IMG/VR virus record: IMGVR_UViG_2778261690_000005
Location: 1-17,234 of that record
Length of the DNA stretch: 17,234 nucleotides
Source: a virus
Lineage: Duplodnaviria > Heunggongvirae > Uroviricota > Caudoviricetes
Direction: 5' to 3' (one strand)
Of this stretch, positions 2,953-12,560 are shown piece by piece. Both the position numbers and the translations under genes were made by a program. Numbering within the stretch: position 1 is the first letter of the stretch; each line of letters opens with the position of its first letter. The notes under the pieces are model-generated. The model did no database searches. It was not told the origin of the DNA and saw only the letters and a program-made list of their open reading frames with translations.

Positions 2953-3028
2953 TGGTGCTGGTTAACGGACTTGAACCGCTACCCATTCGCTTACAAGGCG
3001 ACTGCTCTACCATTGGAGCTAAACCAGC
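2953..3028 (-). tRNA. tRNA-Thr (anticodon UGU)
   Basis: Hand-folded 76-nt cloverleaf on the minus strand: 7-bp acceptor stem GCTGGTT/AACCAGC, D-stem GCTC/GAGC, anticodon loop CTTGTAA (U33, anticodon TGT, A37), T-arm AGCGG-TTCAAGT-CCGTT, discriminator A, encoded CCA. Confidence 0.7.
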
Positions 3029-3033
3029 ATGTT

Positions 3034-3108
3034 TGGCGGGACAGCGTGGGCTCGAACCACGATAAGAAGGTTAACAGCCTTCCGTAATGACCTTTATACG
3101 ACTGACCC
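3034..3108 (-). tRNA. tRNA-Asn (anticodon GUU), somewhat divergent
   Basis: Hand-folded 75-nt cloverleaf: perfect anticodon stem GAAGG/CCTTC with loop CTGTTAA, T-arm CGTGG-TTCGAGC-CCACG, encoded CCA. The acceptor stem GGGTCAG/CTGTCCC has one T-T mismatch and the D-stem is weak. Confidence 0.6.
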
Positions 3109-8917: not shown

Positions 8918-8975
8918 ATGTAAGTATTTCCTTAACAAATAAGAAGTTATGCGCATCAAATTATGCGCGTTGTAT

Positions 8976-9018
8976 TCCCGCATTTCGGCGGGAATGAGGA
9001 CCATGACTGTTAAAGAGC
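8976..9018 (-). promoter_or_regulatory. nutR: boxA (GCTCTTTAAC) plus boxB hairpin (TCCCGCCGAAATGCGGGA)
   Basis: Located 8 nt downstream of the cro stop on the minus strand. Same boxA and boxB sequences recur at nutL (10650-10690). A palindromic hairpin at 8951-8968 (GCGCAT-CAAATT-ATGCGC) follows, as a possible tR1-like element. Confidence 0.7.
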
Positions 9019-9249: not shown

Positions 9250-9320
9250 AGAATACTACAGGTATTCAAAGCAATCAATACTCAGGGTATTTTTAGTTTA
9301 AGTACCTTAGCTATTAGAAT
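9250..9320. promoter_or_regulatory. OR operator region with divergent pR and pRM candidates
   Basis: Three 15-bp dyad sites: AATACTACAGGTATT (9252-9266), AATACTCAGGGTATT (9278-9292), degenerate AGTACCTTAGCTATT (9301-9315). pR candidate on minus strand: -35 TTGATT (9273-9278), 17-bp spacer, -10 TATTCT (9250-9255). pRM candidate on plus strand: -10 TAGAAT (9315-9320), placing the start at the cI AUG (leaderless, as in lambda). Confidence 0.55.
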
Positions 9321-9326
9321 TAAGCT

Positions 9327-10043
9327 ATGGAAAATAAAAAATCACTGACGACAGAACAGCTAGAAGACGCTAAGCGGCTTAAGGCTTTGTATGAGTCAAA
9401 AAAGAAAGAATTGGGAATAACCCAATACTCAATCGCTGATGAACTGGGTATCACCCAAGGAGCGGTAGGGCATTATCTTAATGGCAGAAACGCGCTAAAC
9501 GTTGAGGTTGCATCTGGTTTTGCACGACTGTTGCAAGTCTCAATTGCTGATTTTAGCCAGTCAATTGCTGCCAAGGTTGCAGAACAGGCAGAAAGCCTTA
9601 AGAGCGATGCCAACGTAAGGTATGCAGGAGAATACAGAGCAGGAAAGAGGTATCCGGTGTTAAGCAGTATCCAGGCTGGCTCGTGGTGTGAAGCATGCGA
9701 ACCATACACCATTAAAGACATAGATGTTTGGCTTGAGTCTGACGCGCATATTCAAGGTAATGCGTTCTGGCTTAAAGTGGAAGGTGATTCAATGACGGCA
9801 CCGGTTGGGTTAAGCATTCCAGAGGGAACATTCGTTCTTTTCGATACCGGAAGGGAGGCGATCAACGGCAGCTTGGTCATAGCAAAACTTTCTGACTCTA
9901 ACGAAGCAACATTCAAGAAGCTGATAATCGACGGCGGAAATAAATACCTCAAGGGACTTAATCCTGCATGGCCTCTCGTGCCAATCAATGGAAACTGCAA
10001 GATTATAGGCGTTGCAATTGAGACAAAACTCAGACTGGTTTGA
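9327..10043 (+). CDS. cI: CI repressor (HTH N-domain plus S24 LexA-like autocleavage domain)
   Basis: 238 aa. N-terminus LTTEQLEDAKRLKALYESKKKELGITQ matches lambda CI ([27 protein letters not shown]) as recalled; Ala-Gly cleavage-site candidate; C-terminal GDSM...FKKLI...LNP motif. Confidence 0.9.
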   Translation: MENKKSLTTEQLEDAKRLKALYESKKKELGITQYSIADELGITQGAVGHYLNGRNALNVEVASGFARLLQVSIADFSQSIAAKVAEQAESLKSDANVRYAGEYRAGKRYPVLSSIQAGSWCEACEPYTIKDIDVWLESDAHIQGNAFWLKVEGDSMTAPVGLSIPEGTFVLFDTGREAINGSLVIAKLSDSNEATFKKLIIDGGNKYLKGLNPAWPLVPINGNCKIIGVAIETKLRLV

Positions 10044-10061: not shown

Positions 10062-10430
10062 ATGGTTGGAACCGCTATAGCAAGCTTTTTGGGGATGTTG
10101 GCAATCTCAACAATTTACGGCTTAGCGCATGCTTTTATTGCGAAATCTCTATCAGAAAAAATAAGCCAGGCTTGGGCGCATAGATCAGCTCGTTTCATGA
10201 TTCTGGTGATCATAGCAATACAAGGGATATCTGCATTTATCATCTATGGATCAAGCTTATACCTATTGTATCAAGGCGCGACATTTACGCCTTACACCAG
10301 TGATTACGGAACTCTATACGATGGTAGTGAAGACATCTCTATGGCTTGGATCGTCTTTGGTTTATCTATGGCCGTGTCTGTTGTAGCAGACATCATTAAG
10401 GTAATTCTCGTCTTAACCTTCGCTGACTAA
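10062..10430 (+). CDS. Small integral membrane protein (122 aa, about 3 TM helices) at the rex position downstream of cI
   Basis: ATG preceded by AAGGGGG with a 5-nt spacer, 19 nt after the cI stop. Three hydrophobic helices (residues about 4-26, 45-69, 95-120). No resemblance to lambda RexA or RexB as recalled. Confidence 0.6.
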   Translation: MVGTAIASFLGMLAISTIYGLAHAFIAKSLSEKISQAWAHRSARFMILVIIAIQGISAFIIYGSSLYLLYQGATFTPYTSDYGTLYDGSEDISMAWIVFGLSMAVSVVADIIKVILVLTFAD

Positions 10431-10516: not shown

Positions 10517-10603
10517 AATATCCTTTGTATTCATTTGCTTATCATTATTTCACCAAAAATAAATACCTTGGGTATTTACACAATAAAATACCTACAGTAT
10601 TCT
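10517..10603 (+). promoter_or_regulatory. OL operator region with pL candidate
   Basis: Three dyad sites of the same family as OR: AATATCCTTTGTATT (10517-10531), AATACCTTGGGTATT (10562-10576), AATACCTACAGTATT (10587-10601). pL candidate: -35 TTTACA (10575-10580), 17-bp spacer, -10 TATTCT (10598-10603), the same -10 hexamer as the pR candidate. Confidence 0.55.
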
Positions 10604-10649
10604 TTAGCCATCAGCAGGACGCTGGTAGCCAAACGGAACAGATTGGCAG

Positions 10650-10690
10650 GCTCTTTAACATTGATGGGATTGTCCCGCCGAAATGCGGGA
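10650..10690 (+). promoter_or_regulatory. nutL: boxA (GCTCTTTAAC) plus boxB hairpin (TCCCGCCGAAATGCGGGA)
   Basis: Exact copy of the nutR boxA and boxB on the opposite strand, downstream of pL and upstream of N. boxA resembles the rrn-type boxA (GCTCTTTAACAA). Confidence 0.7.
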
Positions 10691-11048: not shown

Positions 11049-11348
11049 ATGACAGTAGTCATTACATATCTGGCTGACGATAACGCCAGAAATCGCCGCA
11101 GAGCACGCAGACAGGCTCAACGTGAACAGGCAATGCAAGAACAGCGATTGGCGCGAAAGATTGCGCTAAAGCTCTCTGGTTGCGTCAGAGCAGATAAAGC
11201 AGCATCACTCGGAAGCCTTCGCTGCAAGAAGGCAGAAGAAGTCGAGCGTAAACAGAACCGTATTTACTACCGCAAGCCACGCAGTGAAATGGGTGTGACT
11301 TGTGTTGGTCGCCAGAAAATGAAATTAGGCAGCAAACCACTTATTTGA
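11049..11348 (+). CDS. N: N antiterminator
   Basis: 99 aa with an N-terminal Arg-rich motif (DDNARNRRRARRQAQREQ) and a C-terminus resembling lambda N (YYRKPRSEMGVTCVGRQKMKLGSKPLI versus WYSKPGERGITCSGRQKIKGKSIPLI, from memory). RBS GGAGG with a 5-nt spacer; nutL and nutR are present. Confidence 0.85.
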   Translation: MTVVITYLADDNARNRRRARRQAQREQAMQEQRLARKIALKLSGCVRADKAASLGSLRCKKAEEVERKQNRIYYRKPRSEMGVTCVGRQKMKLGSKPLI

Positions 11349-11359
11349 GAGGAATTAAT

Positions 11360-11983
11360 ATGTCATCAATCCGCTTAACTACGAGAATGAAAGAGGAAAT
11401 CGCTCGTAACGCTTTAATTAAGTCTGGGGTTTTCACTGAACTTGAAGAAGTAACAAAGTTAAAGAACCAGCTTGCACTTGACGCCAGAGTTATTGCGTTT
11501 GGCGGGAAAAAGAAAACCGAAGAAGTGGACCAGCTGGCATCAAAGTTAATGGCTGCAAGTGAGGAACTTCAAAAGCTTGGATGTTCATTTTACTCACGCG
11601 ATGTCAGTTCAAGTTCGATTTATCTGACTGTATCTGGAAGAAGGGTTGGCTGGCATTCATACGGAAAAGACGGCAACGGTGAAGATATATTTCTCCCTAC
11701 CCCCAACAAAGATAAATGCATGTTTGACGCAGAACACAAAATAACAAAAAGGTTTGATGAAATCTGCGAATTGCAACAAAAACTTGAAGCCAGGAAAAAG
11801 GATATCGAATCAAATGTATGGGCTGCTTTGAACTCAGTCACAACAGTTAAGCGACTTATTGAGGTCTGGCCTGAAAGCAAAGAGTTGCTACCAAAAGAAG
11901 CAGATAAAGCAAGTGCAGCACTTCCTGCTTTACGGGTAGAAGATTTGAATAAGATGATTGGACTTCCTTCCGAGGCCGCATAG
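11360..11983 (+). CDS. Hypothetical protein (207 aa), first gene after N; function unknown
   Basis: ATG at 11360 preceded by GAGAGGAA, 12 nt after the N stop; stop codon embedded in a terminator hairpin. Predicted soluble, charged, partly coiled-coil. The six-frame start at 11300 overlaps N and is a likely over-extension. Confidence 0.65.
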   Translation: MSSIRLTTRMKEEIARNALIKSGVFTELEEVTKLKNQLALDARVIAFGGKKKTEEVDQLASKLMAASEELQKLGCSFYSRDVSSSSIYLTVSGRRVGWHSYGKDGNGEDIFLPTPNKDKCMFDAEHKITKRFDEICELQQKLEARKKDIESNVWAALNSVTTVKRLIEVWPESKELLPKEADKASAALPALRVEDLNKMIGLPSEAA

Positions 11984-12000
11984 TCGGCCTTTATTTTTGG
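11973..12000 (+). terminator. Intrinsic terminator (tL1-like) at the end of the 207-aa gene
   Basis: AGGCCG-CATAGT-CGGCCT stem-loop followed by TTTATTTTTGG; the gene's TAG stop sits in the loop. Confidence 0.6.
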
Positions 12001-12127
12001 CATAAACAACAGAATAAACACTGCACTGTGTATTCATTCCAACGAGTGAATACACGGAGCAATGTCGCTCGTAACTAAACAGGAGCCGACTTGTTCTGAT
12101 TATTGGAAATCTTCTTTGCCCTCCAGT

Positions 12128-12153
12128 GTGAGGGCTTTTTTATATGCATACCA
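12128..12153 (+). terminator. Intrinsic terminator (tL2-like) upstream of cIII
   Basis: GCCCTC-CAGTGT-GAGGGC followed by TTTTTTAT. Confidence 0.7.
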
Positions 12154-12207
12154 ATAACGCTTCACTCGAGGCGTTTTCGTTATGCAATCAAATATAAGGA
12201 GTTACCC

Positions 12208-12342
12208 ATGATGCACTTTCAGCTCGCGGGTAGCGGCGTCATGTCCGCTTTCTACCCGCACGAATCTGAATTATCACGCCGAGTTAAACAATTAATCAGA
12301 GCAGCAAAGAAACAACTGGAGGCGTTATGCGCAATGAAATAG
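12208..12342 (+). CDS. cIII: CIII (FtsH/HflB inhibitor) homolog
   Basis: 44 aa from ATG-ATG at 12208 (AAGGAG RBS, 6-nt spacer): MMHFQLAGSGVMSAFYPHESELSRRVKQLIRAAKK... resembles lambda CIII (MQYAIAGWPVAGCPSESLLERITRKLRDGWKRL) as recalled. The six-frame ORF start at 12103 is an extension. Confidence 0.7.
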   Translation: MMHFQLAGSGVMSAFYPHESELSRRVKQLIRAAKKQLEALCAMK

Positions 12343-12478
12343 CCATTAATCACCAGATGCTTCGTGCTGCACAGAACAAAGCAGTAATAGCCCGATTTAT
12401 TGGTGATTCAAAAATGTGGCTTGAAGCAAATAAAGCGATGAAATCAGCTATCAACCTTCCGTGGTATCGCAGGAAATG
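12327..12478 (+). CDS. Kil-like small protein (host division inhibitor candidate)
   Basis: 50-aa ORF overlapping the cIII 3' end, with GGAGG RBS. Central motif ARFIGDSKMW resembles lambda Kil (TFIGDEKMF) as I recall it; that recall is uncertain. Confidence 0.45.
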
Positions 12479-12560
12479 AGTTTTACAGATAACTGGTCAG
12501 ACGAAGAATTCATTCGTCAGATGAAAGAAATGCTCAATCAGCACAAAGAACAGGAGAAAG

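Follow-up and report, generated by a model that had tools for sequence, protein, structure and literature searches.

The locus described here is best compared with the pL-nutL-N-tL1 unit of phage lambda, in which tL1 lies directly after N and accessory genes such as ral are N-dependent. It also has to be compared with the Nmad5 family (PF18757; PHROG 1965), which was named from the neighbourhood of its genes in hypermodifying phages. The only experimental data on this family come from Dhillonvirus phages: escape from the Tmn defence is obtained by the Nmad5 change K216E in PhiSMA8 or K296E in PhiSMS22, and sensitivity to Tmn returns when the change is reverted (PMC11846954). In the same study, deletion of nmad5 neither sensitised the phage nor gave Tmn escape; the missense change alone mattered, and the Dhillonvirus gene could not be cloned owing to apparent toxicity (PMC11846954). 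Furthermore, the reported trigger of Tmn in phage T2 is RIIB, a protein called an early replisome component by the authors (PMC13001434, 2026 preprint).

The window, i.e. the whole stretch of 17,234 nucleotides that was analysed, is the immunity and early region of a lambdoid prophage, lambda's leftward direction being the + strand. It carries the following features:

genes on the - strand, in order: Rha, Rz, holin, Q, two tRNAs, NinI-like phosphatase, NinG, NinB, DnaB-like helicase, unassigned 296-aa ORF, cII and cro
2956-3028 and 3037-3108, - strand: two tRNA genes, downstream of the Q antiterminator gene
9252-9315: oR, three operator sites matching those of oL
9327-10043: cI-type repressor gene
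10062-10430, + strand: ORF for a 122-aa hydrophobic, membrane-like protein (phrog_6534), directly after cI, at the position of lambda rexA/rexB
10517-10531, 10562-10576 and 10587-10601, + strand: oL, three operator sites AATACC-N3-GGTATT, from a pattern search
10575-10603, + strand: candidate pL, TTTACA-17-TATTCT, a promoter-like pattern overlapped by the oL operators
10649-10690, + strand: nutL, boxA-like GGCTCTTTAAC and boxB-like hairpin TCCCGC-CGAAAT-GCGGGA
11049-11348, + strand: N antiterminator gene, 99 aa (phrog_271, E 4.8e-37)
11317-11973, + strand: cargo slot, from the 3' end of N to the backbone terminator, delimited by comparison with E. coli 266917_2 (L104)
11349-11353, + strand: Shine-Dalgarno sequence GAGGA, 6 nt ahead of the ATG
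11360-11983, + strand: Nmad5-family gene, 207 aa (PF18757, phrog_1965)
11972-11999, + strand: t1, tL1-like, first intrinsic terminator of the pL transcript; hairpin 11972-11991 followed by TTTATTTTT, dG -11 kcal/mol
12023-12060, + strand: 14-bp hairpin in the backbone leader of cIII, between t1 and t2; dG -20.2 kcal/mol, z -6.45
12118-12141, + strand: t2, terminator-like hairpin (12118-12135) and T-run; dG -11.1, z -3.3
12156-12182, + strand: t3, weaker terminator-like hairpin (12156-12175)
12208-12342, + strand: cIII (phrog_550, E 1.3e-12)
12327-12479, + strand: kil (phrog_2055, E 1.2e-35)
+ strand genes after kil: a phrog_3486 ORF, RecT, a Gam/Gp157-like gene, and Ea22- and DUF551-type genes

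The leftward early genes have the organisation of a lambda-type pL unit: a tripartite oL controls pL, a nut site and N come next, and an intrinsic terminator closes the unit, with a variable region before cIII and kil. The difference is one cargo gene intervening between N and the terminator. The operator pattern has nine matches in the whole window against 5.7 in shuffled sequences, which is not above chance. The six best matches split into a triplet beside cI/cro and a triplet beside pL. An inverted 44-nt copy of nutL with 82% identity is found at about 8975-9018 on the - strand, between cro and cII, and is presumably nutR. The N protein scores 20.2 bits with the Pfam N_peptide profile, under the cut-off of 27.9, besides its PHROG match. 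At the position of cIII, one other locus (L098) has a 135-nt hypothetical CDS just before kil, and CIII is annotated in mEp235.

The gene of interest runs from an ATG at 11360 to a TAG at 11981-11983, and the stop codon of N lies 11 bp upstream. Its own stop codon sits within the loop of the t1 hairpin, as the earlier note had reported. The full hairpin is kept in about 85% of the ~80 copies compared, in which the loop carries either TAG or TAA, and its fold energy is only modestly better than that of shuffled sequences (z -1.5). The terminator scan of the window returned six sites against 3.8 +/- 2.2 in shuffles, i.e. not far above chance, so that t1 and t2 are supported by where they lie and how well they are conserved, and t2 also by its fold z-score, rather than by the number of sites. 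The second terminator announced by the same note at 12128-12153 does correspond to a terminator-like site, but the hairpin is located at 12118-12135 and its T-run extends to about 12141.

The description of the gene as bracketed by terminators has to be abandoned, since t1 and t2 both lie downstream of it and the scan detected no terminator-like site on the + strand between pL (10575-10603) and position 11972. Because no intrinsic terminator separates pL, N and the gene, the latter would be co-transcribed with N before N acts. We thus consider with fair confidence that the Nmad5 gene is probably immediate-early and N-independent, a conclusion drawn from the absence of intrinsic terminators by a scan that is blind to Rho-dependent termination inside N or the gene. 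It is probably not the first N-dependent gene, as had been proposed, being upstream of the first intrinsic terminator, which is a backbone element shared with E. coli 266917_2; the first gene requiring read-through of t1-t3 is cIII.

The comparison with E. coli 266917_2 delimits the slot that harbors the gene. The immunity region of this strain is 98.4% identical to the window as far as position 11317, which lies within the 3' end of N, and is so again beyond position 11973. Nmad5 is missing between these two points (L104 2554-3225), where the strain carries a 45-aa Cys-rich DUF5484 ORF and the gene of a 156-aa phrog_1636 protein; the stop codon of this other cargo abuts the same t1 hairpin. 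Since t1 is common to a locus with another cargo, it belongs to the backbone and is the equivalent of lambda tL1. This comparison of sequences shows that Nmad5 is one of several alternative cargoes between N and tL1. Whereas tL1 directly follows N in lambda, the cargo slot lies here between N and the first terminator; cargo carried ahead of this terminator should therefore be N-independent, unlike lambda ral.

The upstream junction is variable in 80 IMG/VR loci, different N alleles being joined 64-104 bp before the ATG. Many of these loci (L007-L086) match the window only over these last 64-104 bp, the rest of N being different, and the last codons of the present N allele seem to travel with the Nmad5 cassette. 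In some of the IMG/VR loci, Nun or another small ORF precedes Nmad5, and some have an extra insertion of ~540 bp after t1. More broadly, the N-to-cIII region of relatives carries sieB, ral, DUF2528 and phrog_2471 genes and other unassigned cargo, and the gene of the window sits in this variable accessory region.

A prophage can be carried without the Nmad5 gene, which most lambdoid prophages lack and which gives way to other cargo in sister prophages. In the one Stx2a-phage record examined, that of the converting phage Stx2_716 (L111 1196-2504), a 1309-bp element of the IS3 family (orfA HTH_Tnp_1, orfB rve) interrupts the gene near codon 35, at a point corresponding to ~11463-11466 of the window. 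The same truncated match pattern (residues 34-207, at two places in each of the records listed) is found in 47 other Stx2a records.

The 207-aa ORF was regarded in the earlier note as an unrecognised gene matching no lambda early-left function. The ORF is real and is indeed absent from lambda's own early-left set, but its family is known. It matches the Pfam Nmad5 profile with 236 bits against a cut-off of 27 (E 5.5e-70) and from end to end (residues 4-203 on profile positions 1-206 of 206), and it matches phrog_1965 (E 3.4e-81), a group whose function label in PHROGs is unknown. Close relatives are named 'Nmad5 family putative nucleotide modification protein' by NCBI/PGAP. RefSeq names an Nmad5 gene in 211 of 5426 complete E. 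coli genomes, and the gene with its flanks is matched in 333 phage records, including mEp235, HK542, Kapi1 and Stx1a-converting phages; it is also carried by HK244, and an identical copy is present in IMG/VR (L007). At a larger scale, a profile search gave 2653 clusters (50% identity), of which the best 150 consist almost entirely of stand-alone proteins of about 200 aa (190-230 aa), and a search for multidomain Nmad5 fusions found none. All 82 copies compared are intact and pairwise dN/dS is ~0.2 in every protein region, which bears out the conservation across relatives. The Nmad5 gene studied here is thus an intact, already catalogued member of its family and is under purifying selection.

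The copy of the window shares with the family its stand-alone format, the N-terminal residues R5-L6, I14, A18, R43 and G48, and the invariant C-terminal T162, L166, WPE, L176, P178, L196-N197 and G201. Among 195 cluster representatives, the best conserved positions on the N-terminal side are R5, L6, I14, A18, R43, G48 and G93, and the C-terminal module comprises T162, K164, R/K165, L166, W170-P171-E172, E175-L176-(L/I)-P178, L188-P189-A190, L196-N197 and I200-G201-L202-P203. The motif set of the family (RL..I..NA, R43, GG, G93, T162.K[RK]L, WPE..EL[LI]P, LPA, LN..IGLP) occurs with frequencies of 0.9-0.99 over these representatives, and every position is present here. Judged from this alignment, the C-terminal module is the most conserved part of the protein. 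The aligned members show no conserved Cys, His or acidic catalytic set, and the pI, which is 7.65 here, ranges from 5.2 to 9.6 across members, with no DNA-mimic charge. The absence of a catalytic set together with a varying pI leads us to read Nmad5 as a binding protein, and not as an enzyme or a DNA mimic.

An AlphaFold2 model built on a 25-sequence alignment has a mean pLDDT of 83. Residues 8-72 form three helices at the N-terminus, 86-122 a small beta region and 127-158 a long helix, after which come short C-terminal helices; pLDDT falls below 50 at residues 182-192 and 201-207. Foldseek gave no match in the PDB, and only other Nmad5 or anonymous phage proteins in BFVD. The homology search proposed in the earlier note returned a full-length family match, whereas the structure prediction yielded no fold relative in the PDB. 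PADLOC (a chance-level match only), NCBIfam and PDB-sequence searches were negative, and no similarity to Ral, Ocr, ArdA, Gam/Abc or proteins of that kind appeared in Pfam, PHROGs or PADLOC, Nmad5 being the sole Pfam/PHROG family matched. Residues 182-207, highly conserved yet mostly predicted with low pLDDT, look like a docking motif. The C-terminal peptide may resemble hexapeptide sliding-clamp-binding motifs, such as QLVLGL and QPLLIP.

The genomic contexts of the family differ between temperate and virulent phages. In the temperate phages examined, Nmad5 is always located at the promoter-proximal end of the early-left operon. For instance, in prophages of Klebsiella (L002-L005) and Serratia (L089), the early-left operon opens with Nmad5, behind the repressor and a pL-like promoter and ~380 bp from the repressor gene, and the scan of these prophages found neither an N-like ORF before Nmad5 nor a terminator after it. 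In a Morganella prophage (L109), it directly follows the repressor gene, with a 385-bp gap devoid of an N-like ORF. In prophages of Shimwellia, Dryocola, Izhakiella, Providencia and Pantoea and in a JGI contig, Nmad5 is preceded by N, Nun, an HNH gene or small ORFs; it is found either no more than ~1.1 kb past the repressor gene or immediately after N/Nun. The Providencia prophage has the order Nmad5, DUF2800, Enc34 ssDNA-binding protein and PolA.

In virulent phages, Nmad5 is found, with exceptions, inside replication and nucleotide-metabolism modules. The N4-like phage Pollock (L091) has the order DNA polymerase, thymidylate synthase, Nmad5, exonuclease, primase, Sak4 and SSB; PolA comes immediately after Nmad5 in Acinetobacter phage Scuro, a helicase/primase precedes it in eiAU and a helicase precedes it in the Jilinvirus ECO1230-10. 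In Vibrio phage PvVp04, RecE-like and replication-initiator genes are near Nmad5, and a metagenomic contig (L088) has the order ThyX, Nmad5 and HAD/PNKP. In YuA/M6-like phages (L096, L102 and L103), Nmad5 lies directly before an annotated thymidylate synthase gene and upstream of PolA, and downstream of genes annotated as threonine dehydratase, DNA repair photolyase and small terminase subunit. The products of this cassette are named pyrimidine hydroxymethylase, PLP enzyme, rSAM, nucleotide kinase and aGPT-Pplase in the SN1 paper, and this hypermodification context explains the name of the family. Two Vibrio phages carry Nmad5 among anonymous small genes and are uninformative, and in Dhillonvirus it is a core gene of 253 aa (146 records) that lies on the opposite strand, with head genes and spanins around it. 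A ThyA-like gene adjoins Nmad5, or is one small ORF away, in two unrelated phage lineages, and the non-homologous ThyX does so in a third one. Altogether, the neighbourhood link of Nmad5 to DNA-metabolism genes is circumstantial.

The Dhillonvirus protein belongs to the same Pfam family and has the same C-terminal module, but it shows only ~22% identity to the protein of the window, contains a large mid-protein insert in its 253 aa and is encoded by a core gene of virulent phages. In two divergent Dhillonvirus alleles, which were used for this mapping in place of the sequence of PhiSMA8 itself, the motif T-(D/T)-K-K/T-K216-L-I-K-A-W-P-E places K216 opposite R165 of the window copy. R165 stands just before the invariant L166 and WPE, and 157 of 195 representatives have R or K at this position. 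We infer from this alignment that the Tmn-escape change probably falls within the conserved C-terminal module. With RIIB as a trigger of Tmn, an action of Nmad5 at the same stage and place is at least consistent. Nmad5 and T-even RIIB are alike as early phage proteins with a link to replication, for Nmad5 a predicted one, and in that a single missense change in either of them allows escape from Tmn. They are unlike in that RIIB is unrelated to Nmad5 in sequence and fold, deletion of Nmad5 gave no escape, and the link between Nmad5 and Tmn is genetic only.

Our best overall explanation, to which we give about an even chance, is that the gene of the window is a stand-alone Nmad5 cargo inserted in the N-tL1 slot, expressed as an immediate-early gene and encoding a non-enzymatic DNA-metabolism adaptor. 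On induction or infection, pL (10575-10603) would fire and yield a transcript covering nutL, N and the Nmad5 gene. Without N, this transcript would end at t1 (11972-11999), so that the Nmad5 protein would be made together with N, whereas cIII, kil, recT and later genes would need N to pass t1-t3. The protein, of ~200 aa, would be a helical, non-enzymatic adaptor. Early in infection, its C-terminal module would dock onto a conserved partner, most likely one that serves DNA replication, recombination or nucleotide-precursor metabolism. Nmad5 would then act as a replisome-associated or host-takeover factor and not as a base-modifying enzyme. That Nmad5 binds a conserved DNA-metabolism partner through its C-terminal module as a non-enzymatic adaptor is a proposal made from conservation and the model, in which we have low to moderate confidence. 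A bolder version, which we consider rather unlikely, is that the family is misnamed and consists of widespread early adaptors whose invariant C-terminal LPA..V.DLN.[LM]IGLP docks a host replisome or repair component and redirects or shuts off host DNA metabolism, an action sensed by membrane NTPase defences such as Tmn. If true, lambdoid Nmad5 would be a second immediate-early function beside N.

The most serious competitor is a dedicated counter-defence protein, made on entry and inhibiting or evading host restriction or abortive infection as Ral and Ocr do. This role, the one suggested in the earlier note, is possible, though clearly less probable than the adaptor. The variable N-to-cIII hot spot is also home to ral and sieB in relatives, the gene is an exchangeable cargo of patchy distribution whose position predicts immediate-early expression, and the Dhillonvirus homologue is genetically tied to Tmn escape (PMC11846954). 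However, the nmad5 deletion of that same study neither sensitised nor freed the phage (PMC11846954), and the protein has neither similarity to known anti-defence families or PADLOC models nor the charge of a DNA mimic. Moreover, the gene is conserved within replication modules of unrelated virulent phages, and a near-invariant C-terminal motif across Proteobacteria-infecting phages, with a dN/dS of 0.2, is unlike fast-evolving defence-specific inhibitors. Conservation and contexts fit a dedicated anti-defence role less well than a DNA-metabolism adaptor. The name of the family, 'nucleotide modification associated domain 5', suggests instead an accessory subunit of a DNA base-hypermodification pathway. 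Indeed, the YuA/M6-like Nmad5 gene lies within the thymidine cassette, between genes annotated as hypothetical protein and thymidylate synthase (aGPT-Pplase1 and pyrimidine hydroxymethylase under the SN1 names), and ThyA or ThyX adjoins Nmad5 in two other lineages. Such a role is quite improbable here, since the fold is not enzyme-like and no base-hypermodification cassette was found in the window or in the lambdoid, N4-like, eiAU, Jilinvirus and Dhillonvirus contexts examined. The ORFs scanned in the window include no thymidylate-synthase-like, kinase, aGPT-Pplase, radical-SAM or methyltransferase gene; the copy lacking such neighbours, it is the functional label that is affected and not the homology.

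Two further readings start from the position of the gene, and both appear very unlikely to us. A prophage-expressed moron that protects the lysogen, for instance by superinfection exclusion, would fit with sieB adjoining Nmad5 in some relatives and with the reported toxicity of homologues. However, the scan found no promoter-like site between pL and the Nmad5 gene, and the downstream terminator is that of the backbone, so that the gene has neither the promoter nor the terminator of its own that characterise a moron. It lies in sense orientation in the repressed pL operon, and virulent phages, which never form lysogens, commonly carry the family. An early transcription regulator, either antiterminator or Rho antagonist, replacing N in N-less lambdoids would account for the occupation of the N position, as first gene of the pL operon, in Klebsiella, Serratia and Morganella prophages. 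Against it, N (or N together with Nun) is present alongside Nmad5 both here and in many relatives, the N-less prophages scanned have no terminator after Nmad5, and the protein has neither an arginine-rich motif nor a nucleic-acid-binding fold. Its presence in the replication modules of virulent phages is also hard to reconcile with such a function.

The finding is ordinary in kind, i.e. a known family in a known mosaic hot spot, and has some value in the corrected transcriptional logic of the locus and in an accessible lambdoid system for a large orphan family. Nmad5 is a very large phage-specific family, which includes a core gene of Dhillonvirus and is found in some N4-like and YuA-like phages and in many lambdoid phages, including Stx1- and Stx2-converting ones. 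The N-independent slot would offer a simple genetic system for the function of the family, by comparing lambda-like phages with and without the cassette. Furthermore, the replication-module contexts suggest that the annotation 'nucleotide modification protein' should not be taken as evidence of modified DNA in these prophages.

Some other elements of the region deserve mention. The tRNA pair downstream of Q is a common arrangement in Stx-type lambdoid late regions. The strong hairpin at 12023-12060, for which an Rfam search returned nothing, is also found in a sister prophage that lacks Nmad5 and may be a processing or regulatory element for cIII. Lastly, the 122-aa ORF located directly after cI (10062-10430) is a candidate for expression in the lysogen.
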